DNA of 64,000 bases from an uncultured Eubacteriales bacterium (GCA_900548115.1 URJL01000003.1:4794-68793), one strand, 5' to 3'. Shown: positions 1,306 to 41,883, counted from the first letter of the stretch. Notes: generated from the letters alone by a model not told the origin. A program made the numbers and translations.

Positions 1306-1385
1306 AGGATAAACGGAGAAAAACGGGAAAGCGTATTGTGACTTAAAAATGAATCGAATGTGTCCTATTTTTCACAATCGTTCTC

Positions 1386-1414
1386 TTGCATTTTGCGGCA
1401 AAATGTGGTAGAAT
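1386..1414 (+). promoter_or_regulatory. sigma-70-type promoter candidate for the ABC exporter operon
   Basis: TTGCAT (1386-1391), 17-nt spacer, TAGAAT (1409-1414), with TGg extended -10 (1406-1408). Confidence 0.45.
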
Positions 1415-1476
1415 GACAAGCGGTGTGTCGGGCAGCCGCAGCTGTTCCGACGCGGAGAATCTTATTACACAAAGGT

Positions 1477-1509
1477 GGTTTGCCCGTTTTCGGCAGACCT
1501 CTATTTTTT
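1477..1509 (+). promoter_or_regulatory. terminator-like hairpin in the 5' leader (candidate attenuator)
   Basis: 8-bp stem GGTTTGCC (1477-1484) / GGCAGACC (1492-1499, one G-U pair) with a 7-nt loop. It is followed by TCTATTTTTT (T-run 1504-1509) and ends 3 nt before the AAAGGAG RBS of the first ABC gene. Confidence 0.35.
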
Positions 1510-1523
1510 CGAAAGGAGACAAT

Positions 1524-3266
1524 ATGCTGAAAAAACTGACCGAAAGCATACGGGAATACAAGCTTCCGTCGATTTTGACGTTTCTGTTTATTCTGCTCGA
1601 AGCGATTATCGAATGCTTTATCCCGTTCATCACGGCAAGCCTTATCGACAAGATTGAAGCGGGGACCGATATGGAGACTGTCGTGAAGACCGGACTGTTG
1701 CTTTTCGTGATGGCGTGCGCCTCGCTTTGCTGCGGCGGCATCGCGGGGGTCACATGCTCCAAGGCATCGTCGGGCTTTGCCAAAAATCTGCGCAGGGACA
1801 TGTTTTACAACATTCAAAGCTATTCCTTCCAAAACATTGACCGTTTTTCCGCCTCGTCGCTCGTGACGCGCCTGACGACCGATATCACGAATGTGCAAAT
1901 GGCCTATATGATGGTCATCCGCACGGCGATCCGCGCCCCTTTGGTCATGATCTTTTCGATCGTAATGGCGTTCATCATGGGCGGAAAGCTGGCACTTTCC
2001 TTCGTTATTATCGTTCCCGTTTTGGGCTTCGGACTGTTTCTCATCAGCCGCAAGGCAATGCCCGCTTTCCGTCGGGTATTTAAAAAATACGACCGCCTGA
2101 ACGAATCCATCGAAGAAAATGTCCGCGGAATGCGCGTCGTCAAGGGCTTTTCGCGCGAGGAACACGAGAAGAAAAAGTTTGCCCTTGCCGCCGAGGATAT
2201 CTGTACCGACTTCACAAAAGCCGAGCGTATTGTTGCGCTGAATTCGCCTCTTATGCAGATCTGCGTTTACTTTAACATGGTATTTGTCCTTTTGGTCGGT
2301 TCGCGGCTCATCATCACGAGCGGCGGAAGTCTTATCAATGTGGGCGAAATTTCCGCCATGCTCAATTACGGCATGCAGATTATGATCCAGCTGATGATGC
2401 TGACCATGATCTATGTTATGATCACCATGTCGGGCGAATCGGCAAAGCGTATTTGCGAAGTGCTCGACGAAAAGACGGTTCTCGGCAACCCCGAGAACCC
2501 CGTGACCGAAGTAAAGGACGGCTCGGTCGATTTTTGCGGCGTTTCCTTTAAATATGCAAGCGACGCGGAAAAATTTGCCCTTGCCGACATCGATCTTCAC
2601 ATAAATTCGGGCATGACCGTCGGCATTATAGGCGGTACGGGCTCGAGCAAATCGTCGCTCGTTCAGCTCATCCCGCGTCTTTACGACGCGAGCGAGGGTG
2701 TCGTAAAGGTCGGCGGCGTCGATGTGCGCGATTATGATCTTGACACCCTTCGCGGCGCGGTCGCCATGGTGCTGCAGAAGAACCTTCTGTTTTCGGGTAC
2801 GATCAAAGAAAATCTCCGTTGGGGCAACGAGAACGCGACCGATGAAGAGATCGCCGAAGCGTGCAGGCTTGCACAAGCCGACGAATTTGTCCGCTCCTTC
2901 CCCGACGGGTACGATACCCACATCGAGCAGGGCGGAACCAATGTTTCGGGCGGTCAGAAACAGCGCCTTTGCATCGCGCGCGCCCTTCTGAAAAAGCCGA
3001 AGATCCTGATCCTCGACGATTCCACCAGCGCCGTCGATACCAAGACCGACGCGCTGATTCGTGCGGGATTCCGCGCCTATATCCCCGAGACCACCAAGAT
3101 CATTATCGCACAGCGTATCGCGTCGGTTCAGGACGCCGATCTTATTTTGGTCATGGACAACGGTAAGATTGAGCACGTCGGAACGCACGAGACGCTTTTG
3201 CGCGAAAGTCCGATCTATCGCGAAGTCTACGAACAGCAAACGAACGGAGGTGCGTCTCATGAATAA
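1524..3266 (+). CDS. ABC transporter permease/ATP-binding protein (exporter half-transporter, subunit 1)
   Basis: Frame of ORF 1386..3266; ATG 1524 behind AAAGGAG. N-terminal 6-TM-type region, then Walker A GGTGSSKSS, signature VSGGQKQR and Walker B ILILDDSTSAVD. Confidence 0.9.
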   Translation: MLKKLTESIREYKLPSILTFLFILLEAIIECFIPFITASLIDKIEAGTDMETVVKTGLLLFVMACASLCCGGIAGVTCSKASSGFAKNLRRDMFYNIQSYSFQNIDRFSASSLVTRLTTDITNVQMAYMMVIRTAIRAPLVMIFSIVMAFIMGGKLALSFVIIVPVLGFGLFLISRKAMPAFRRVFKKYDRLNESIEENVRGMRVVKGFSREEHEKKKFALAAEDICTDFTKAERIVALNSPLMQICVYFNMVFVLLVGSRLIITSGGSLINVGEISAMLNYGMQIMIQLMMLTMIYVMITMSGESAKRICEVLDEKTVLGNPENPVTEVKDGSVDFCGVSFKYASDAEKFALADIDLHINSGMTVGIIGGTGSSKSSLVQLIPRLYDASEGVVKVGGVDVRDYDLDTLRGAVAMVLQKNLLFSGTIKENLRWGNENATDEEIAEACRLAQADEFVRSFPDGYDTHIEQGGTNVSGGQKQRLCIARALLKKPKILILDDSTSAVDTKTDALIRAGFRAYIPETTKIIIAQRIASVQDADLILVMDNGKIEHVGTHETLLRESPIYREVYEQQTNGGASHE

Positions 3267-5175
3267 GCAAAAAGGCAAAAAGCCCTCGCTCGATATGCGC
3301 ACCTTAAAGCGCGTGCTTTCGTATCTTTTTAAGTTTTATCCCGTTATGGTGCCGCTCACGGGCGTTTGCATCGTCCTTTCGGCGATCGTTTCGGCAGTTC
3401 CCGCCGTCTTTTTGCAAAAGGTATTCGCCGTCATCGGCGACTGTCTTGCGCGCGGCGAGCTGAGCTGGGAGGTCGCAAAAGCGCAGATTCTTCCTAAGGT
3501 TCTTATCCTGATCGCACTGTATGTCGGCGCCATGCTTCTCATCACGCTGTATACCCAGCTCATGGCGTTTATCACGCAGGGCTTTCTTGACAAAATGCGC
3601 TGCCGTATGTTTGACGGCATGCAGAATCTTCCCATCCGCTATTTTGACACGCACAAGCACGGCGATATCATGAGCTATTACACCAACGATATCGACACGC
3701 TTCGCCAGCTCGTGTCCCAGGCGCTGCCGTCGCTTTTGCAGGCAGGCATCATCTCGTTCTCGGTGCTTTGCATCATGCTTTGGTACAGCATTCCGATGAC
3801 CTGTATCGTTCTGGTCGGCGTTGTCGCTATGGTCTTTGTCTCCAAAAAGGTCGGCGGCGGTTCGGCAAAATTTTTTATTCGTCAGCAAAGGACCATCGGT
3901 GAGACCGAGGGCTATATTCAGGAAATGATGAACGGGCAGAAGGTCATCAAGGTGTTCAGCCATGAACGTCGGGTCGAGAAGGATTTCGACGCGATCAACG
4001 ACGCGTTGTATGAAGACAGCTTCAAAGCGCATGCCTACGCCAACTGTCTCGGTCCGATCATTATGAATATCGGAAACGTTTTGTATGTTATCTGTGCTAT
4101 GATCGGCGGCCTTCTCCTTTTGTCGGGCGCGCCGAACGTGAGCCTTTCGGGACGGGTCGTCTTCACGATCGACATTATCGTTCCGTTTCTGAACATGACC
4201 AAGCAGTTCACCGGCAACATCAACCAGCTGTCCCAGCAGATCAACTCGATCGTCATGGGTATGGCGGGCGCCGCGCGTATTTTCGATCTGATGGATCAAA
4301 AGCCCGAGCCCGACGACGGCTATGTGACGCTGGTCAACTGCGAGCAGACGCCCGACGGCACAATGCGCGAGACCGAAAAGCGCACGGGACATTGGGCATG
4401 GAAGCATCCGCACGGCGACGGTACACTTACCTATACGCCGCTTCGCGGAGACGTGCGTATGCTTGACGTGGATTTCGGTTATGAGCCGGGCAAGGACGTT
4501 TTGCATGATGTGACGGTTTATGCGGAACCCGGTCAGAAGGTCGCCTTTGTCGGCGCGACGGGTGCGGGAAAGACAACCATCACCAATCTGATCAACCGCT
4601 TCTACGATATCGCCGACGGCAAGATCCGCTACGACGGAATCAATATCAACAAGATCAAAAAAGCCGATCTGCGCCGCAGTCTCGGCATCGTGCTTCAGGA
4701 TACCAACCTGTTTACGGGCAGTGTAATGGACAACATCCGTTACGGACGGCTCGACGCGACCGACGCGGAATGCCGCGAGGCGGCAAAGCTTGCGGGTGCG
4801 GACGATTTTATCTGCCGTCTTCCGAAGGGCTATGATACCGAGCTTACCAACAACGGCGCCAACCTTTCGCAGGGTCAGCGACAGCTGATTGCCATTGCCC
4901 GCGCCGCTGTTGCCGATCCGCCCGTTATGATTTTGGATGAGGCGACCTCGTCGATCGATACGCGCACCGAGGCGATCGTTCAGCGCGGTATGGATCAGCT
5001 CATGAAGGGGCGCACGGTGTTCGTTATCGCCCACCGTCTCTCGACTGTTATGAATTCGGATGTCATTATGGTGCTGGATCACGGCAGAATCATCGAACGC
5101 GGAAACCACGAAAAGCTGATCGCCGAAAAGGGCGTCTATTATCGGCTTTATACCGGCGCGTTCGAGTTGGAATAA
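3259..5175 (+). CDS. ABC transporter permease/ATP-binding protein (exporter half-transporter, subunit 2)
   Basis: Frame of ORF 3061..5175; ATG 3259 (MNKQKGKK...) overlaps the upstream stop by 8 nt. Walker A GATGAGKTT, signature LSQGQRQ, Walker B MILDEATSSID. The pairing suggests a heterodimeric exporter. Confidence 0.9.
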   Translation: MNKQKGKKPSLDMRTLKRVLSYLFKFYPVMVPLTGVCIVLSAIVSAVPAVFLQKVFAVIGDCLARGELSWEVAKAQILPKVLILIALYVGAMLLITLYTQLMAFITQGFLDKMRCRMFDGMQNLPIRYFDTHKHGDIMSYYTNDIDTLRQLVSQALPSLLQAGIISFSVLCIMLWYSIPMTCIVLVGVVAMVFVSKKVGGGSAKFFIRQQRTIGETEGYIQEMMNGQKVIKVFSHERRVEKDFDAINDALYEDSFKAHAYANCLGPIIMNIGNVLYVICAMIGGLLLLSGAPNVSLSGRVVFTIDIIVPFLNMTKQFTGNINQLSQQINSIVMGMAGAARIFDLMDQKPEPDDGYVTLVNCEQTPDGTMRETEKRTGHWAWKHPHGDGTLTYTPLRGDVRMLDVDFGYEPGKDVLHDVTVYAEPGQKVAFVGATGAGKTTITNLINRFYDIADGKIRYDGININKIKKADLRRSLGIVLQDTNLFTGSVMDNIRYGRLDATDAECREAAKLAGADDFICRLPKGYDTELTNNGANLSQGQRQLIAIARAAVADPPVMILDEATSSIDTRTEAIVQRGMDQLMKGRTVFVIAHRLSTVMNSDVIMVLDHGRIIERGNHEKLIAEKGVYYRLYTGAFELE

Positions 5176-26576: not shown

Positions 26577-27671
26577 TTAAAGCGTTTCGTAACGGAACTT
26601 TTCGAAAACGCGCATTTCGCCCCTGTCGTTGATCAACGCACCGTAGCGCACGACCGAGACGGTCTTTTGTTCGTGGTCGATCACATAGGCGTTGAGCGCG
26701 TCTTCGGTGACGGTGTCGGGAATGCGGGGCAGATCGGAGATCTCCTCGCCGATGTTATGATAGCCCTCGGGGAAACAGCCCGTGCAGGTCATGCAGAAGA
26801 AAAGCTGTCCCGGATGATGCGCAAGCGTTCCGCAGAAATCGCCGTGGCGGTGTCCCGTGAGATAACAGATGAATTCACCGCGCCCCGAAAAGGCGTGTTC
26901 GACCGTGAAGCTTTCGCCCGTGCGGCTGTAGGTGTAGGTCTTTTCGATCTTTTCGCCGCGTCGGAAAGCCTCCACAATGTCCTCGACGACAAACGGATCG
27001 TGTTCCGCACGCCGCCCGCCCCACGGATGGGGATCGAAGCGCTGGCAGAAGCGGTTGTCGGCGTCGCACAGTTTCGGCTCGTCCGCAAGCTCATGCATCG
27101 CGATGAGAACACCGAAGCCTTTTTCTTTCGCTTCGGAAAGCGCACGGCACAAAAAGTCCGCCTGCTCTTTCTTTACGGCGTATTTGTCGCGGATCGAAGA
27201 ATCCGCCGACTCGAAATCATACGGGCAAAGGACGATGAGACGAAGCGCCTCCTTTTCGAAATCGACGAAATAATACGGCTTTTCGTCGCAGACGATGCCC
27301 GAGAGGGGCGAGACGAACATTTCGTACAGCTCTTTTTCGGAGAGGGTGCGCTCGTTGCGGAACGTGTCGTGATTGCCGATCGTGTTGAAGATCGGCACGG
27401 TCTCGTTTTCGATGCCGTCGTAGAAAAAGCGGCTGTCGTCGCTTGCGTTCCATGTCACGACGTCGCCCGTGTGGACGGCGAAGGTCGGTTTTATGTGACG
27501 GATGAGCGCAAGCGCGTTTTGAAAGGAGCGAAGATCGCCGTGCAGATCGGAGATCTGAACCAAAACGGTCTTATTGTCCGAGAAGGAAAGAGCGTCCTCA
27601 GTGCGGAAGGTTTTCTTCGCGGCACAGAGATACTGTTCGGAAAGCGTATTGCGCAAGATAACTTCGTTCAT
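26577..27671 (-). CDS. metallophosphoesterase (calcineurin-like)
   Basis: ORF 26577..27896; start moved to ATG 27671 (MNEVILRN...). Motifs ISDLHGD, HTGDVV, GNHD, and later MHE / GHRH. Confidence 0.75.
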   Translation of the reverse strand: MNEVILRNTLSEQYLCAAKKTFRTEDALSFSDNKTVLVQISDLHGDLRSFQNALALIRHIKPTFAVHTGDVVTWNASDDSRFFYDGIENETVPIFNTIGNHDTFRNERTLSEKELYEMFVSPLSGIVCDEKPYYFVDFEKEALRLIVLCPYDFESADSSIRDKYAVKKEQADFLCRALSEAKEKGFGVLIAMHELADEPKLCDADNRFCQRFDPHPWGGRRAEHDPFVVEDIVEAFRRGEKIEKTYTYSRTGESFTVEHAFSGRGEFICYLTGHRHGDFCGTLAHHPGQLFFCMTCTGCFPEGYHNIGEEISDLPRIPDTVTEDALNAYVIDHEQKTVSVVRYGALINDRGEMRVFEKFRYETL

Positions 27672-27685
27672 GTTTTTGCCTCGTT

Positions 27686-28708
27686 TTATTCGTTTTCGGC
27701 GCGCTTTAAGCGCGAGACCAAAAGGTCTTTTTCTTTGTTTTCCATGACCCGTAAAATGCCCTCGGCAACGCAGTCGAGAGGGGCTTTGGAAATATAAACG
27801 GGAAGATGGGTCTTTTCGGAGATCAGCGTGTCCAGCCCGCAAAGCTGTGCGCCGCCGCCCGTGAGGACGATCCCGTTGTCGTATATGTCCGAGCAAAGCT
27901 CGGGCGATGTGCCCTCAAGCGTCGCCTTGATGGCGTCCACGACCGCCGCGAGCGGTTCTTCGAGCGCTTCGCGGATGTCGCTGGAATAAACATTCATGGC
28001 GGCGGGAAGCCCCGTTAAAATATTGCGGCCCCGCACCTCGGCGACACCGATGTCGGTGGTGGGATGCGCCGAGCCGATGGCGATTTTAATGTCCTCGGCG
28101 GTGCCTTCGCCGATGACGACGTTGAATTTGCGCCGAATGTGCGACACGATCGCCTCGGTACAGCGATCGCCCGCCGTGCGCAGCGAGACCGATTTTGCAA
28201 TCCCGCCGAGTGAGATGACGGCGACCTCGGTCGTTCCGCCGCCGATATCGACGACCATACAGCCGCAGGCGGCGCGGATGGGAAGTCCTGCGCCGATCGC
28301 TGCCGCCATCGGTTCTTCGATCAGCGATACCGATCCCGCACCCGCCTCGAGCGTCGCTTCCTCGACGGCTTTTCGTTCGACGTCGGTGACGCCGTAGGGA
28401 ATACAGATAATAATATTCGGACGGGAGGCAAAAATGCTGTTTCCGAGCGCCTTTCGGATAAAAACGCGAAGCATTTCGCCCGTAAGCTCGAGATCGGCGA
28501 TAACGCCGTCGCGCAGGGGACGCATGGCGCAGACATACGGCGGCGTTTTGCCGTACATGGCTTTTGCCTCGTTCCCGACCGACAAAACGCGGTTGGTTCG
28601 CGTGTCGTAGGTTACATAGGAGGGCTCGCGGATGATAATGCCGCCGTGACGGGTGCAGACCAGCGTGTTTGCCGTTCCGAGATCGATGCCGATGGTGCCG
28701 CCGCTCAT
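27686..28708 (-). CDS. mreB: rod-shape-determining actin homologue MreB/Mbl (orphan paralogue; no mreCD downstream)
   Basis: IGIDLGTANTLV, RPLRDGVIAD, VVDIGGGTTEVAVISLGG, IVLTGGGAQLCGLD. The ATG (28708-28706) overlaps the stop of the upstream giant ORF. Confidence 0.9.
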   Translation of the reverse strand: MSGGTIGIDLGTANTLVCTRHGGIIIREPSYVTYDTRTNRVLSVGNEAKAMYGKTPPYVCAMRPLRDGVIADLELTGEMLRVFIRKALGNSIFASRPNIIICIPYGVTDVERKAVEEATLEAGAGSVSLIEEPMAAAIGAGLPIRAACGCMVVDIGGGTTEVAVISLGGIAKSVSLRTAGDRCTEAIVSHIRRKFNVVIGEGTAEDIKIAIGSAHPTTDIGVAEVRGRNILTGLPAAMNVYSSDIREALEEPLAAVVDAIKATLEGTSPELCSDIYDNGIVLTGGGAQLCGLDTLISEKTHLPVYISKAPLDCVAEGILRVMENKEKDLLVSRLKRAENE

Positions 28709-31700
28709 ACCGTGCCCTCCTTGTCTTTTTCGTTTTTGTTTTCTCCTAAAAGCGCTTCGACTTCAAAGAGCAGCTTTTGCGGATCGAGATATAAAGCCGC
28801 ACTGTCCAAATGCAGAAGCGCGGGATTCTTCGAAAGATCGGGGATCAGTCCTTCCGAATCGAAACGGCAGTTCTTGCGGTTTTGCCCTTCGCCGAACACA
28901 ACGCCGCGCCCGTCTCGCAAAAGCGCACAGGGAATTTTGTGCTTCGTAAGAAGACGGCAGAATTCGACGGCGCTTGCCTCGACGTTTCTCGTCGGGCGGT
29001 ACGGGTCGTAAAGGGCGTCGATCCCCTCGGATGCCGCCGTCGAAAGCGATGCGGCAAAGAGCGCCGCGCGCGAACCGAGAAGGTCGGGATAGCGGTGCGG
29101 AGCAAAGGTCGAGACGAGAACCGCGCGTTTTGTATCCGCCCCGCAAAGTGCGGACAAAAGAGAGGCAGGCTTCTCGGCGGGAACGTCGATGTCGCCGCCC
29201 TCCGCGCCGTAAGCGGCGCCGAGCAGAACCAGATCGTAATGCCGATAAAGCTTGACTTCGGCGGGAAGAATATCGATGCGGCGTTCCTTTACCGCACGGT
29301 CGGCGGCGGGGCTTTTTTCGCAAAGAATGCGCAAAACACCCCTCAGCGCGCCGAGCTGTCCGCGGTTTGCGGCAAGAAGTGCGATTTTTTGTTCGGGGTC
29401 TTTCTCGAGTGCCTTCAGAACCTCCAGCCCCACGGTCTGTGCCTCGGGAACGTTCTTTCCGCTCTCGCGGTCAAAGCCCGAAACGGGGGAGAGAAAATGC
29501 GAAAGAGCCTCGGCACGTTTCCCGTCCGAAGGTGCGGGCGAAAAGACCGCGATGCCGCCCCGCCGCAAAAGAGCCGCCGCCGAAGCCGAAAGCTCGGTCT
29601 GCGGATCGGACAAGAAAAGCTTGTGCTTGGCATGAGGAAGAGCGGACAGGATTCTTTCGGGGGTGAGCCGTCCCGCGTCGAGCACCGCGACGGTCTCAAA
29701 GCCCGACAAAAATCCCGTGCGGGAGGGCTGTGCCGTCACAATGGGGAAGAGGGTGCGCAAAAGGTCGCCGTGACGAAGAAGAATGTCCTCGGCGCAAACG
29801 CTCTCGCGCGAAAGATCGTCCGAAAAGGCCGCGGCTTTTTCGGGATTTTCGCGAAGGTAAGCGCCCACGCGGCGGAGATACAGCTCGCGCACGGCGCGGC
29901 GGTTGTCCCGAAGACGCTTTTCGTGAAGACCGCACAGACGTGCGGCGTCACGCCCGTAATCGGGATAAGAAAGAAGCTTTTTGCCGCACAGGGCAATTTG
30001 CTTTAAAATCAGGTGTAACTGGGAGCGAAGGAAGATCGCTTCGACCCCCGCCGTCGCCGCGTGCGTTTCGAGATAATCGACGAAAACCGAAATCCCGAGC
30101 TTGCGGCAGCGCGCCGCACAGCGGTTATATTCACAGACGCGCGGAAGAATATCCGCCGCGCTCTGCCAGTCGCAGAGAAGAGCATACAGCCCGTTATCCG
30201 AAAGAATGCCGTCTTCAAAGCAGAGCGCGTAAAGATCGACGCCGAGCATTGATGCGAGACGCAAAAAACTGCTCTCATCCGAGAACATGCGGTCGAAAAG
30301 CCCCGCCGCCGAAACGACGGCTCCGGAAAGCTCTTCGTCCGAAGCAAGACGGCTTGCCGCGTCGGGCAGAGCCTTTGCCGCTTTTTTTCGCGCTTCGGTG
30401 TCGGTGCCGAAGATCTTTTTCAGCAAAACGTCGGCGTTTTTGGCAAAATCCGAAAGGGCGAAAAGCTTTTGAAAATCGGTGCCCGTTCCGTTCCAGTACC
30501 CCGCAAAATACGGTGCGACTTCGTTGCTTTCTTCGTCAAAGCGGGCGCAAAGCTCGGACAGACGGTAAAGAGAGTGCAAAACCTCGGCAGTGCCTTTTTT
30601 CGCACTGTCCGAAAATGCGGGTTCGACCGTGCGGTAGGCGTTTACGGTTTTGGTGATATCGGATCGGGACAGGTCGTGTCCGCTCGCCCACTTGTCAAAA
30701 AGATCCTTCGCGTCGAGCGAAAAGATTCCCTCGTCAAATTCGCAAAGTCCCTCTTTTTCGCGCAGAATGTCCGCCGCAAGCTCCGAAAGAGCGCAGAGTT
30801 TCTGCGAGACCGCATAGACATCGCCCGCCAAAAGCTCGCCCGTTATGCCCGCGTCACAGCGCTTGAGCAAAAGGACGGAAAGTGAGAGAAGGGCGTACAG
30901 TGAGGGGAGCGAGAAAATGTCGGAGGGCACAAAGCCCATGCTTTCGGAGACCGTTCGGGCGGCGGGCAAAAATTCCTCGGCGGCAAGACGGCATTTTTCC
31001 AAAAGGTGCGCCACGGTGGGAAGCGCAAGTTCGTTCTCGGTCGTGCCGACCGAAAAAAAGGGATGTTCTTTATACGGTCGGTCGGGGAAAAGAGCGCGCG
31101 CCGCGCGGCACAGCTCATGCTGGGCTTCAAACAGCGCTTCGACCGACGCTTTGCCCATATCGGGATAGAAGATCGTTTCGGGTTCGATTCGGATCTCGCG
31201 TTCCTCTTCGGACAAATTTTCACCTGCGGCGGTGTAGGCGCGCGCGGCGTCGTAAAACGAAAAGGCAAAATCAAAGCGCTTCGCTTTGGCGTCGTGATAG
31301 GCAAAAAGACGGTCGCGCAAAAGAACGTATTCCTCCGCCTCCGCGTCGGAAAGAGTGCTCTCGTTCTTGCCTTCGACTTCGCCGCTTTCTCCGTTTTCGG
31401 CTTCGGAAAGAGCGGCGGAGGACAGCGCCGCAAGCTTTGTGCGGAGCACCTCCTTCGTCTCACAGCCGTCGTGCAGAGGGAGAACGCACTCGGAAAGCCC
31501 GCAGTCGTCAAAAGATGCTTCAAGCGCCGAGAGCGAAGACGTTTCTTCGGCGCAGATCAGCGTCGAAAAGCCGAGCCGCAGATTATTCTGCGCGGCGGCA
31601 AGCACCGCATCGGAAAAGAGCGCCGCGTCACCCGATGACAAAAGCAGATCTTCGTCGCGGCAAAGCGCGGCGGCAAGAAGAGCATCGCCGTCAAACGGTG

Positions 31701-33600
31701 AAAGAAGCGTTTCCGAAAGCTTTCGCACCGTTTCTTTGTTTGCGCGCACTCTCTCATCGGGGAGCGCGGGAGACGTTTTTTCTTCGTCGGAAAGCAGAAA
31801 AGAGGCGGTTTTGTCGGCGAGAATCTTATCGCTTTTATCGACGATATCAAAGGCGAGAACGCTGTTCCGATACGGAAAAGCGCCGATTGCCGCTTCTTTG
31901 ATAAAGGTATACCCGCTTTTTTCGCAGAGCGTTTCGAAGCAGGTCATGATGTCGGAAAAATCGTTCCCGGGCAGTCCGTAGCGCTCGAAAAACGCCCCGG
32001 CACCGAGACGCTTTACCGTCTCGCATAAAAGGCGGTTGACATACGGCACTTTCGCCGTAAAACGAAGAAAAAGACGGTTGCCCGACACGGCAAGATGAAC
32101 GGGATAAAGAGCGGCGGGCGCGAGCTTTTCGGAATAACGAAGAAAACCGCAGGCAAGATACAGTTCTTTTTCCCCGTCCTCGGTCGTGCCGAGAAGCGCT
32201 TCGGCTTCGGAGAGCTGCAGTGCGAGACTCTGCGGAACGCCGAGCGTATTTTTGCGCTCAAGCTCCGAAAGGGCGGCGCGGTAAGCGGCAATATGCCGTT
32301 CCAACTCATCTTTTTCCGCACGGTTCAGCTCCGACGTGCGGGACGGCGCGGGAAACAGAGCGCTTATGCCGTCGGAATACGGCGCGATCTTTTGAAGATC
32401 CGCAAGATCCGCCGTCCCCGCAAGGGCGTATTCGACCTCCTTTGCCGCAAGAGACGGCAGAAGGGAAAAATCGGAAAAATGAACGAAAATGCCGCCGTGT
32501 TCTTCGAACGAATAGGAAAGAAGCGGCGTTTTATCGGTGTGCGTCAGCGATTCCGCAAGGGACGAAAGCGTGTTTTTCTTGGTGTCGGGCGCTTTGCGGA
32601 GCGTTTCGAGAAACGCCTTTTCGTGCGGGGCGTCTTCGGGATACAGCCCGAAAAAGTCCGCGCCGCCCGCAAGGACCCGTCCGATATCGACGATGAAGGC
32701 GGGATTCAAGTCCCGAAGCTCCTCCTCCGCCTTGTGGCAGGCGTCGGAAAGATCCACGCTGTGTCCCGTGAAGAGGCAGGAGACATCAAAGACCGCCGCA
32801 CGGCGCGTGCCGAGAGCCGACAAAAGACGCGCGTGAGAAAGCCCGACCGCACGATCAAAAACGCCCTCTTCGGCAACGCCGCAGAAAAGATGCGGCGCTT
32901 TTCCGCCGCGAAAGGCGGCGACAATCGGCGAAAATCCGACGCGCAGAGCCGCACAGCAGAAAAGCTGTGCCATTTCAAGAGGCGACGCCATGCGGGCGCG
33001 CCCCGTGTACAGCGTTCGGATATCGTCGAAGGGCGTATTTTTGCGAAGAAAATCGCAGTCTTTTACGGAATAGATGATCGCTTCGCGCTTGAGAGAAGCG
33101 TAAAGCGCTTCGAGATCCCGAGGCGGCACTTTTTCGATGATGCGGGAGATTTCGGAATGAAACGGCGAAAGGCAAACGGCAAAATACGCGCTTGCCGCCC
33201 CGACCGGATAGGTGCGGGCAGGCAGCAGCGTGATCGGAGCGTCGCCCGAAAAGCGGACGCCGTCGATCAGCGCTTCCACGCAGATCTTGCCCGTGACGGG
33301 CGCCTTCAGATTGCGGAAAAAGTCTTTTTTCAGACGAAAGTCGGCGTTCTGAAGGTCAAAATGCAGATCGCCCTCGGTCTCGCGGAAGAAAAGCTCGCCG
33401 CCCGAAAAAACACATTTTTCCGAGAAAAAGCCCGATTTCGAGAGTCCGTATACCGAAAGCGACACGGAATGAGCCGAAAGTCCCGCAAGACCGCGTATTG
33501 TCACCGAGGAAAGAATCGGTGTGTGCAGTGCGCAAAAGCCGAGCGAATAAACGGGAGTCGCTGCGGGAATGATTTTTACGGATTCGGATTTTATCATCAT
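28705..33600 (-). CDS. very large (about 1,631 aa) protein of unknown function; DUF4011/SF1 (Upf1-like) helicase-like layout with degenerate ATPase motifs
   Basis: One uninterrupted frame (ORF 28705..33684); likely start at the ATGATG at 33600/33597. ELYLACGFLRY resembles the DUF4011 LYLxxGFLxW signature. SSGDAALF sits where Walker A is expected and VLDAGRL where DEASQ is expected. No GK[ST] occurs anywhere in the protein. The family assignment is from memory and was not searched. Confidence 0.8.
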   Translation of the reverse strand: MMIKSESVKIIPAATPVYSLGFCALHTPILSSVTIRGLAGLSAHSVSLSVYGLSKSGFFSEKCVFSGGELFFRETEGDLHFDLQNADFRLKKDFFRNLKAPVTGKICVEALIDGVRFSGDAPITLLPARTYPVGAASAYFAVCLSPFHSEISRIIEKVPPRDLEALYASLKREAIIYSVKDCDFLRKNTPFDDIRTLYTGRARMASPLEMAQLFCCAALRVGFSPIVAAFRGGKAPHLFCGVAEEGVFDRAVGLSHARLLSALGTRRAAVFDVSCLFTGHSVDLSDACHKAEEELRDLNPAFIVDIGRVLAGGADFFGLYPEDAPHEKAFLETLRKAPDTKKNTLSSLAESLTHTDKTPLLSYSFEEHGGIFVHFSDFSLLPSLAAKEVEYALAGTADLADLQKIAPYSDGISALFPAPSRTSELNRAEKDELERHIAAYRAALSELERKNTLGVPQSLALQLSEAEALLGTTEDGEKELYLACGFLRYSEKLAPAALYPVHLAVSGNRLFLRFTAKVPYVNRLLCETVKRLGAGAFFERYGLPGNDFSDIMTCFETLCEKSGYTFIKEAAIGAFPYRNSVLAFDIVDKSDKILADKTASFLLSDEEKTSPALPDERVRANKETVRKLSETLLSPFDGDALLAAALCRDEDLLLSSGDAALFSDAVLAAAQNNLRLGFSTLICAEETSSLSALEASFDDCGLSECVLPLHDGCETKEVLRTKLAALSSAALSEAENGESGEVEGKNESTLSDAEAEEYVLLRDRLFAYHDAKAKRFDFAFSFYDAARAYTAAGENLSEEEREIRIEPETIFYPDMGKASVEALFEAQHELCRAARALFPDRPYKEHPFFSVGTTENELALPTVAHLLEKCRLAAEEFLPAARTVSESMGFVPSDIFSLPSLYALLSLSVLLLKRCDAGITGELLAGDVYAVSQKLCALSELAADILREKEGLCEFDEGIFSLDAKDLFDKWASGHDLSRSDITKTVNAYRTVEPAFSDSAKKGTAEVLHSLYRLSELCARFDEESNEVAPYFAGYWNGTGTDFQKLFALSDFAKNADVLLKKIFGTDTEARKKAAKALPDAASRLASDEELSGAVVSAAGLFDRMFSDESSFLRLASMLGVDLYALCFEDGILSDNGLYALLCDWQSAADILPRVCEYNRCAARCRKLGISVFVDYLETHAATAGVEAIFLRSQLHLILKQIALCGKKLLSYPDYGRDAARLCGLHEKRLRDNRRAVRELYLRRVGAYLRENPEKAAAFSDDLSRESVCAEDILLRHGDLLRTLFPIVTAQPSRTGFLSGFETVAVLDAGRLTPERILSALPHAKHKLFLSDPQTELSASAAALLRRGGIAVFSPAPSDGKRAEALSHFLSPVSGFDRESGKNVPEAQTVGLEVLKALEKDPEQKIALLAANRGQLGALRGVLRILCEKSPAADRAVKERRIDILPAEVKLYRHYDLVLLGAAYGAEGGDIDVPAEKPASLLSALCGADTKRAVLVSTFAPHRYPDLLGSRAALFAASLSTAASEGIDALYDPYRPTRNVEASAVEFCRLLTKHKIPCALLRDGRGVVFGEGQNRKNCRFDSEGLIPDLSKNPALLHLDSAALYLDPQKLLFEVEALLGENKNEKDKEGTV

Positions 33601-33640
33601 AAACAAACTGTCCTGTTCCAAAAAATAAGAATACAAATAC

Positions 33641-33669
33641 AGTATAACAAATTTTCGGCGATATTTCAA
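33641..33669 (-). promoter_or_regulatory. sigma-70-type promoter candidate for the giant ORF-mreB operon
   Basis: On the - strand: TTGAAA (rc of 33664-33669), 17-nt spacer, TATACT (rc of 33641-33646). It lies about 40 nt upstream of the start codon. Confidence 0.45.
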
Positions 33670-33771
33670 CCTTTTTCGCGACACTTTCGCCTCTTTTTGC
33701 GAAAAGACGCGCGGGGCTTTTGCGTTTTGCCCGCGCGGCGGGAGAAATAATCCCGAAAAATGTTTTTTCTG

Positions 33772-33800
33772 TTGACAAACCGACGAGATTTTCTTATAAT
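33772..33800 (+). promoter_or_regulatory. consensus sigma-70 promoter candidate for the glucokinase gene
   Basis: TTGACA (33772-33777), 17-nt spacer, TATAAT (33795-33800). Confidence 0.55.
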
Positions 33801-40767: not shown

Positions 40768-41883
40768 TCAGGAAAGCGGAACTCCGTTGACCTCGATCTC
40801 TTCGTCGGCACGAATTAAAATATATTTTGTCCCGCCGATGATCTGAGTCGAAATAAGATCGGTGCGGTCGGGATTGACCTTGATCGAAACATCGGGGGTT
40901 TTGACGCTGAAAGTCTTCAAGTCGAGAAGATTCTGCGGAGGAATCTCCGCGTGTTCGCCGAAGCTTTCGTCAAATTTCGCGCAAAAAGCTTCGGTTTGCT
41001 TTTCGTCCGCGCCGCCCGATTGCAACGCTTCGGTCAAAACGCGCTTATTTAAGAAAAGCGGTTCTTCGGTTTTCTCGTTTTTGTGTTCTTCGACCATTTC
41101 GCAGATCTGACTGTGTACCGAGCGCAGAATCTCGAAATCGCCGCTCACCGTCTCGGCAAGACAGCCGTCGAAATTTTCTCGCTGCTGCGCCGCCGGCATA
41201 GGGAGCGAGAGTCCGAAAAGCCGCTCGGCAAGCGCTTCGCCGCCGCCCGTGATGTCGCGAGTGTAAAAGAGCGTGTTGTAAATGTTTTCGTTTCGGTTGT
41301 CAAAGGCGGGGAACAAAAATCCCACCTCGGGCGCACCCAGAACCGCACCGCCCGTCAGCGTGTGAAAGGCGTTGTCAAAAGCGTTGAAGGTCAACTGCGG
41401 TTTTAAGTCCTTTATCGGACAAACGCAGGCGACGATATAGGAGTAAACCGATTCCGACACTTCTTTTCGCTCGCCGTCGCGGTGGCGGGTGAATACGTCA
41501 TAGGTGTCGCTCGCAGCCAAAAGCACATGATTGCCCTCGCCCGAAATATTCTCGGCGACGCGCGTATAAAACGTTTCGAGCGCTGTTTCATCCTTGAGCG
41601 CCGAGCGTTTGAGCGCCATGAGCAGACGGTGTTCGTCGGAGTTTTCGACCTGGTGCGTCGAAAAAGCAAGATCCAATAGGTTCGTGCCGAGACCGCCCGA
41701 AAGGGTGCGTTTTAAGAGCGAAAGCAGCTTTTCGGTCTCGCTCGATTCCGAAAGCTCGGTCGATTGCCGAAACCGTGCGACGATCTCGCGGCGATCGTTA
41801 ATGAGACAGCCGTATACGGCGGTGATATTGGTTTTTTCGGGATTGAAATGGCGGCGTATCTCCCGCAGTTCACGTTCGGTCAT
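40768..41883 (-). CDS. conserved hypothetical protein (probably the clostridial DUF4317 family)
   Basis: 371-aa clean ORF beginning MTERELREIRRHFNPEKTNITAVYGCLIN..., with no recognisable catalytic motifs. The DUF4317 assignment is from memory only. Confidence 0.5.
   Translation of the reverse strand: MTERELREIRRHFNPEKTNITAVYGCLINDRREIVARFRQSTELSESSETEKLLSLLKRTLSGGLGTNLLDLAFSTHQVENSDEHRLLMALKRSALKDETALETFYTRVAENISGEGNHVLLAASDTYDVFTRHRDGERKEVSESVYSYIVACVCPIKDLKPQLTFNAFDNAFHTLTGGAVLGAPEVGFLFPAFDNRNENIYNTLFYTRDITGGGEALAERLFGLSLPMPAAQQRENFDGCLAETVSGDFEILRSVHSQICEMVEEHKNEKTEEPLFLNKRVLTEALQSGGADEKQTEAFCAKFDESFGEHAEIPPQNLLDLKTFSVKTPDVSIKVNPDRTDLISTQIIGGTKYILIRADEEIEVNGVPLS

Follow-up and report, generated by a model that had tools for sequence, protein, structure and literature searches.

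An apparently inactivated relative of the antiphage protein ProA is encoded directly upstream of mreB in uncultured Clostridia

The antiphage protein ProA (NCBIfam NF058533, the PDC-S37 family of PADLOC) and Hhe, a single-gene antiphage system made of a DUF4011 helicase and a Vsr endonuclease, are members of the DUF4011/Upf1-like superfamily of helicase-nucleases. A large DUF4011 gene of Pseudomonas aeruginosa, which encodes another DUF4011 protein at a fixed chromosomal position, is reported to be a conserved core gene flanking the defence hotspot cDHS1 (PMC10250203). Defence proteins are well known to contain individual domains that have been inactivated (PMC12458937), and RecC (of RecBCD) and AddB (of AddAB) reuse the fold of superfamily 1 (SF1) helicases and a nuclease-like domain without catalysis (PMC1185551, PMC3321194). 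Here we describe a giant gene in a stretch of 64,000 nucleotides (nt) from an uncultured Eubacteriales bacterium (GCA_900548115.1 URJL01000003.1:4794-68793; this whole stretch is the window, and positions are counted from its first letter), whose product of 1,631 amino acids (aa) is, with high confidence, a catalytically dead descendant of ProA kept under selection. No description was found of a whole defence protein with several enzymes that has lost all of them, persists as a conserved clade and is linked to mreB. No primary description of ProA or PDC-S37 was found in the literature searched either, and the mechanism of ProA is therefore not used in what follows.

The giant gene lies in an open reading frame (ORF) of the minus strand, 28705..33684, which runs for 1,659 codons without a stop. 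Its true start is ATG 33600, because every homologue begins at the equivalent Met, and because the promoter at 33669..33641 falls within the GTG-extended frame. Residues are numbered on the 1,631-aa protein unless the 1,659-aa ORF translation is named. The gene, its promoter and the gene that follows it are:

28705..33600 including the stop codon, minus strand: giant gene, 1,631 aa, an evidently inactivated ProA-like protein, with ATG 33600 set by its homologues
33641..33669, minus strand: predicted sigma-A-type promoter with an extended -10 element, TTGAAA-17-TGnTATACT, from promoter scan and reading, 41 nt upstream of ATG 33600
27686..28708, minus strand: mreB, 340 aa, Pfam MreB_Mbl E 3e-127, passing NCBIfam PRK13927 and TIGR00904

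A single frame of about 1,631 aa with its own promoter-like element had already been proposed from the DNA without database searches (the sequence-only reading), and both the start codon and the promoter agree with it. Its positions were recomputed and are exact for ELYLACGFLRY (aa 507-517 in the 1,659-aa numbering, nt 32134-32166), SSGDAALF (31615-31638), LDAG (29671-29682), SDPQTELSA (29584-29610) and RHYD (29233-29244), as is its statement that GK[ST] is absent from the whole protein. Two longer strings that it quoted are also right, but their residue ranges are not, since 681-745 is really 681-740 and 1330-1360 is really 1330-1367. In all eight close-family loci tested (the window, L001, L003, L004, L005, L007, L017 and L018), the best promoter match lies 66-83 nt before the giant-gene start and reads TTGAAA-17-TG-TATA[CA]T, nearly letter-identical despite different upstream genes, and TTGCAA-17-TG-TAT[AT]AT stands upstream of the gene in three loci of distant subclades. 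To judge from this conserved promoter, the giant gene is probably expressed. A divergent promoter with a 12/12 match to the consensus (TTGACA-17-TATAAT, 33772-33800, plus strand) drives a ROK-family glucokinase gene; it and the giant-gene promoter lie in the same stretch of about 250 bp between the two genes.

Searches with the single protein give faint signals of its origin. Pfam DUF4011 (PF13195) matches it with 14.9 bits (E 0.027), below the gathering threshold of 22.2 bits, and a first database search retrieved 20 full-length relatives (1,567-1,636 aa, 99-30% identity), none of them with a Pfam domain or a protein name: 11 of the 20 family members show sub-threshold DUF4011 matches (best E 0.004), none reaches any Pfam threshold and none matches AAA_11 or AAA_12 at E <= 1. 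The NCBIfam model 'anti-phage protein ProA' matches the giant protein collinearly (aa 466-1211 against 465-1204 of 1,903 profile positions, E 4e-31) with 107 bits, short of the equivalog cut-off of 1,500 bits, and PADLOC PDC-S37 matches it with E 1e-15. These matches are insufficient alone, and profiles were therefore compared with profiles. The family profile, searched against 5.8 billion sequences, found proteins with DUF4011, AAA_11, AAA_12 and MTES_1575, some also with DUF3320 (E 4e-18 to 7e-5), the best of which are active relatives that rank as true ProA by the NCBIfam cut-off (1,864-2,078 bits) and as PDC-S37 in PADLOC. Between the giant protein's family, called dead for the losses described below, and these active relatives, hhalign gave a probability of 100% (E 9e-52) over 1,208 columns that extend from DUF4011 through the whole nuclease module (Q358-1617 of the dead family against T35-1396), while the N-terminal 355 residues align with ProA N-termini (E 9e-22, residue 6 opposite residue 9).

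Structure prediction points in the same direction. AlphaFold models of aa 1-460 and 440-1631 reach pLDDT (predicted local distance difference test) values of 85.4 and 80.9, and the best 38 PDB matches of the C-terminal model in Foldseek are all Upf1-like SF1B helicases, among them SETX, Aquarius, UPF1, IGHMBP2, Sen1, DNA2 and ZNFX1 (probability 1.0, E 1e-6 to 4e-4). The predicted fold contains two tandem RecA-like domains, a core alike to that of the Upf1-like SF1B helicases (E 1e-6 to 1e-4 over 300-420 columns). The N-terminal model matches factor XIII, TG3, TG2 and 3kd4 weakly (E 1e-3 to 1e-2, TM scores up to 0.21), and no PDB sequence was matched by the family profile. The giant protein is collinear with, and homologous to, DUF4011/Upf1-like helicase-nucleases, and its nearest active family is ProA. 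The block-by-block agreement with the DUF4011/Upf1-like layout that the sequence-only reading had drawn is thus reproduced by hhalign, and its claim of kinship with DUF4011/SF1 helicases holds at significant levels for both profile and structure. Its N-terminal transglutaminase-like region likewise finds support in the beta-sandwich and alpha/beta model, in the weak Foldseek matches and in an intact triad among the ProA relatives. That reading contained neither the ProA (PDC-S37) kinship nor the dead transglutaminase-like and nuclease sites, the whole inactivated clade or the mreB pairing.

From residue 6 through the nuclease module, ProA and the giant protein share the order of their parts: a beta-sandwich, a transglutaminase-like domain, DUF4011, a first RecA-like domain interrupted by about 550-600 aa of helical insertion, a second RecA-like domain and a Vsr/MTES-like module. 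The predicted domains of the giant protein, all on the minus strand, are:

33226..33576, minus strand: N-terminal beta-sandwich domain, aa 9-125 (AlphaFold pLDDT about 90; Foldseek; alignment with the ProA N-terminus from residue 6)
32596..33189, minus strand: transglutaminase-like alpha/beta domain, aa 138-335 (model, Foldseek, ProA alignment), with Pro207 in place of the Cys
31741..32535, minus strand: DUF4011-like domain, aa 356-620, with ELYLACGFL, AP.ALYPV and NRLLCE (hhalign; sub-threshold Pfam)
31411..31740, minus strand: RecA-like domain 1, first half, aa 621-730 (hhalign; model with a beta-alpha-beta core)
29746..31410, minus strand: large all-helical insertion shared with ProA, aa 731-1285 (hhalign, model)
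29566..29745, minus strand: RecA-like domain 1, second half, aa 1286-1345 (hhalign, family block)
29026..29565, minus strand: RecA-like domain 2, aa 1346-1525 (hhalign, Foldseek), with N1383, E1386-A1387 and Q1415 retained
28708..29025, minus strand: remnant of a Vsr/MTES_1575 nuclease module, aa 1526-1631 (hhalign to the ProA nuclease)

In Foldseek, the beta-sandwich has matches both among Ig-like sandwiches and to the one at the N-terminus of transglutaminases, the DUF4011-like domain is the best-preserved part with respect to active helicases, and the helical insertion carries a clade-specific motif, D.Y..F..G.[LF]S..G, at aa 1122-1137. The giant protein stops directly after the nuclease-like module, so that the last 270 or so aa of ProA, with DUF3320, are missing.

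The catalytic motifs of the active helicases align in hhalign with the following stretches of the giant protein:

Walker A, GPPGTGKS: SSGDAALF
VLFVAEK..LELHS block: STLICAEE..LPLHD
Walker B, FDxVVFDEASQ: FETVAVLDAGRL
Motif III, VVVGDxKQLPP: KLFLSDPQ
WHYRS: a gap
Motif V, NVQGDERD: ..YRHYD, with only the final Asp of DERD retained
Motif VI, RRLNVAxTRAR: arginines absent, no TRAR equivalent

The place of Walker A reads LLSSGDAALFSD, which is no P-loop, and is among the most variable stretches across the 20 family members. That of Walker B reads VLDAGR instead of DEASQ, that of motif III LSDPQ instead of GDxxQLPP, and neither DE[AS]xQ nor GDxxQLPP occurs in any family member. The earlier proposal that every ATPase motif that could be placed is replaced agrees with this alignment for Walker A, Walker B and motifs III, V and VI; intact Walker A and B, looked for at the aligned place in the orthologues, were found in none. 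The losses extend to the other two putative enzymes. The IDL, ECDG and RDRDR residues of the nuclease align opposite non-conserved positions of the dead family, and MTES_1575 has one faint match among the 20 members (E 0.087). At the N-terminus, all seven ProA sequences have the motif TC[LI]D...GH.F.G.W...vE.T, which reads as the Cys-His-Glu triad of a transglutaminase-like enzyme, whereas the matching stretch of the dead family is SPLE...[RHS]ILCG...FD[IV]S, with Pro207 for the Cys, H, R, S, V, L or K at the His position and an acidic residue that is mostly kept.

Compared with ProA, the giant protein has replaced or unconserved residues at the Cys and His of the triad, in Walker A and B, in motifs III, V and VI and in the nuclease site, and unlike the Upf1-like SF1B helicases it has no motifs for binding or hydrolysing ATP. 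The active relatives match the Hhe models below their cut-offs; the giant protein, with all catalytic motifs absent, gives no match. It lacks the residues that peptidase, ATPase or nuclease chemistry needs, and by its function-related features it falls outside the SF1 helicases, the ProA equivalog, the Vsr nucleases and the transglutaminase-like peptidases; what it retains is the two-RecA fold of the first and the collinearity with ProA. A member of the ProA/DUF4011 lineage by descent, it would resemble no described helicase in the way it works. What survives is a hydrophobic framework together with non-catalytic signature residues. Over the whole clade, dead and live proteins share Y481, G485, P495 and N522 in DUF4011 and N1383, E1386, A1387 and Q1415 in the second RecA-like domain.

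The inactivation is not peculiar to the window. When 1.84 billion representatives were searched exhaustively with the profile, 2,459 matched with E <= 1e-3, of which 34 had E <= 1e-30. Among the best 150 matches are 24 further full-length proteins (1,510-1,746 aa) in which Walker A and B and motifs III and V are all missing, and 109 proteins have Walker A and Walker B both intact. A neighbour-joining tree of 64 sequences and 1,598 columns has a single bipartition that separates all 34 dead representatives from the 30 live helicases, which fits one ancestral inactivation followed by spread into four or five subclades. One of them, subclade B, reads GxxGxGK[KME] at the place of the P-loop, with the Ser/Thr lost and no Walker B; the members with this residual P-loop are P0073, P0075-P0077, P0079, P0081-P0083 and P0125. 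All members of the dead clade come from metagenomes or metagenome-assembled genomes, and no source gives the protein a name. Two exact peptide patterns searched in GTDB, with one genome per species, found the giant protein in at least nine species (a lower bound), with host labels of uncultured Oscillospiraceae, Eubacteriales or Clostridia; the two records with a stated source are from water-buffalo colon. No match was found by tblastn of the giant protein against phage and plasmid collections.

The inactivated gene is not decaying, as had also been argued from its long frame. A metagenomic copy of 99% identity differs from it by 28 synonymous and 10 non-synonymous changes, a ratio of non-synonymous to synonymous rates (dN/dS) of 0.116, and with respect to a 66%-identical orthologue the ratio is 0.20, with every domain constrained (ratios of the corresponding proportions, pN/pS, of 0.27-0.59, the highest in the nuclease-like tail); MreB in the same 66%-identity pair has a dN/dS of 0.028. 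Decay to a pseudogene, or degeneration of an active helicase in one strain, would explain why all catalytic motifs are lost, but the frame is open for 4.9 kb, the promoter is conserved, every domain is constrained and full-length orthologues make up 20 or more clusters formed at 90% identity (about 34 representative clusters). Both dN/dS values of 0.12-0.20, indicative of purifying selection, and the breadth of the clade rule this explanation out, and we give it practically no credence.

The most constant feature of the locus is the gene that follows. This is mreB, the gene of the bacterial actin and cell-shape protein MreB. In the window its ATG forms a 4-nt overlap (ATGA) with the giant gene's stop codon TGA, and it lies directly downstream in all 18 informative loci, which represent four subclades. 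Within the close family it is the next gene in 15 of 15 loci with downstream DNA, with a stop/start overlap of 4 nt in 12 of the 13 loci examined and of 1 nt in the remaining one, and the genes upstream of the giant gene vary. In the distant subclades, with one member each, mreB is next in three of three, after gaps of 21-54 nt; identity to the window's proteins is there 22-23% for the giant protein and 50-61% for MreB. At one of these distant loci, that of P0084 (L037), where phosphoglycerate mutase and iron alcohol dehydrogenase genes replace tsaB-hpt-mscL after mreB, both flanks differ and the order giant gene-mreB is all that is shared with the window. Moreover, pairwise distances of the giant protein and of MreB are correlated (Pearson 0.94, Spearman 0.82, 78 pairs), and the pair has therefore been inherited together. 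The C-termini of the giant proteins are rich in E, K and G in every member (..KEGTV, ..EEEKA, ..MEESL, ..PEEKV), a tail that is constrained because the overlapping mreB has its Shine-Dalgarno sequence within the purine-rich last codons of the gene (28708-28740, minus strand). A terminator between the two overlapping genes was considered and rejected; the only terminator-like match nearby, 28815..28797, is weak, and across the whole region such matches are about twice as frequent as expected from shuffling.

Around this pair the window contains housekeeping genes: mreB is accompanied by tsaB, hpt (HGPRT), mscL, a ROK kinase gene and a class II aminoacyl-tRNA synthetase gene, and RecG, RelA/SpoT, RecJ and LepA are encoded further along. 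No defence genes, integrases or transposases were found near the giant gene at the loci examined, whereas the active ProA locus looked at is surrounded by insertion sequence (IS) elements and transposases. The context of the giant gene is core chromosome and no defence island, a fixed locus before mreB, in contrast with the mobile or defence context of ProA.

Small membrane proteins such as MreC, MreD and RodZ are associated with MreB, and are encoded with it or act with it. By position the giant gene would be an mreB operon partner like the genes of these three, to which its product, soluble and of 180 kDa, has no relation in sequence or fold. The pathway that we favour would start with a single ancestral inactivation of a ProA/DUF4011 helicase-nuclease, giving rise to a clade of proteins of about 1,500-1,750 aa in uncultured gut Clostridia. 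In this clade the gene has settled at one chromosomal site, first after the promoter in the mreB operon. Transcription from one sigma-A-type promoter would then serve both the giant protein and MreB, with translational coupling in the close family, and the giant protein would work by binding rather than by catalysis. As a soluble cytoplasmic scaffold, it would most likely organise or regulate MreB filaments or the cytoskeleton, and the preserved DUF4011 and RecA surfaces may hold a ligand, possibly nucleic acid, to which they would link the filaments. Homology, the loss of the catalytic sites, selection, monophyly and the pairing of the genes are shown by the data above, whereas in this scheme we infer co-expression, a ligand and a partnership with MreB, be it physical or functional. 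The scheme as a whole, a domesticated and non-catalytic scaffold co-expressed with MreB, has in our judgement an even chance of being right. That the giant protein is a partner of MreB, as suggested by gene order only, has an even chance or slightly less, and its most specific version is put forward more tentatively: an antiphage helicase-nuclease, domesticated once and deprived of its three enzymatic activities, would have founded an undescribed class of MreB partners, would be co-translated with MreB among uncultured gut Clostridia of one deep clade, and would be needed for normal organisation of MreB filaments or for their coupling to the nucleoid. A membrane protein was also considered and rejected, given that no transmembrane segment is predicted and the maximal Kyte-Doolittle mean over 19 residues is 1.79, in one helix of the insertion.

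Several observations weigh against this scheme. Maximal distances of 0.69 for the giant protein and 0.22 for MreB mean that the former evolves about three times faster, which is unusual for a tight partner, and the dead clade as a whole has no more than about 30 conserved positions, E209 and A218 among them, so that any common binding surface would be small. The loci were sampled starting from the giant protein, and a scan of metagenome contigs of the Joint Genome Institute (JGI) with MreB gave no close orthologue, its matches being at most 66% identical. A conserved adjacency can persist without direct interaction, and the host genomes may have a second mreB next to mreCD. Finally, members of subclade B might still bind nucleotide without hydrolysing it.

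This residual GxxGxGK is also one of the arguments for a cryptic enzyme, in which an ATPase or another site would have been rebuilt from non-canonical residues and the motor retained; the other is a set of polar residues invariant in the close family, such as H280 in LFTGH, E1428-K1429-S1430 and D1456. However, these residues are not conserved over the dead clade, the P-loop place varies freely within the family, and the Walker A Lys/Thr, Walker B Asp/Glu, motif III Gln and motif VI Arg are jointly absent, which makes such an enzyme very improbable. A non-catalytic role in binding nucleic acids, for instance in nucleoid organisation or repair, with a merely transcriptional link to mreB, deserves more weight. 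The two-RecA fold is retained, the residues most conserved clade-wide belong to the DUF4011 and RecA2 framework shared with active helicases, and dead SF1 helicase or nuclease domains that bind DNA have precedents in RecC (PMC1185551) and AddB (PMC3321194). The likeness to these two proteins is one of analogy only, as they come from another helicase lineage (SF1A, UvrD-like) and are complexed with an active helicase-nuclease encoded nearby, whereas the sole conserved neighbour of the giant gene is mreB. Moreover, the residues with which motifs Ia, III, IV and V of Upf1-like helicases contact nucleic acid are replaced, and the giant protein is acidic in each domain (family median isoelectric point 5.2); the isoelectric points per domain are alike in dead and live proteins. 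Such a binder is, on balance, unlikely.

Less likely still is a residual role in immunity, either as a sensor, decoy or guard of MreB or as a titrator of phage inhibitors of ProA-type defences, in which case its own effector domains would be dispensable. The nearest relatives are antiphage (ProA, PDC-S37, Hhe), MreB is a known phage target and host factor, the giant protein evolves fast relative to it, and inactivated domains are common within defence systems (PMC12458937). Nevertheless, none of the three activities that could have served as effector or motor is left, and inheritance has been vertical at one core locus, with distances that track those of MreB at r = 0.94. The surroundings are free of the defence genes, integrases and transposases searched for, unlike those of active ProA, no phage or plasmid homologues were found, and the predicted sigma-A-type promoter is shared with an essential-type gene.

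If the scaffold co-expressed with MreB is the right explanation, the locus would be a clear case of reuse from immunity to housekeeping, in which a protein with three dead enzymes keeps an architecture of 1,600 residues under selection across lineages whose MreBs are 50-60% identical, and the giant protein would be a candidate new partner of MreB in bacteria with an unstudied cell biology. It also offers a natural 'all-dead' control for the non-catalytic parts of ProA and Hhe, that is DUF4011, the helical insertion and the N-terminal domains. In terms of annotation, proteins of the dead clade deserve neither a helicase nor a defence-gene label.

Other features of the window can be mentioned. 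A gene for a calcineurin-like metallophosphoesterase lies between mreB and tsaB, both in the window (26577-27667, minus strand) and at the locus of a 66%-identical relative (L018, 10871-11962); the more distant loci lack it and have tsaB immediately after mreB. The listed start of its ORF, TTG 27896, overlaps mreB and is probably too far upstream. Two pairs of ORFs overlap on opposite strands, 1365-3302 (minus) with 1386-3266 (plus) and 3304-5109 (minus) with 3061-5175 (plus), and the minus-strand members are without a Pfam match. Finally, a full-length DUF4317 protein unrelated to the giant gene is encoded at 40768-41883 on the minus strand (E 7e-113), adjoining an AraC-family regulator.

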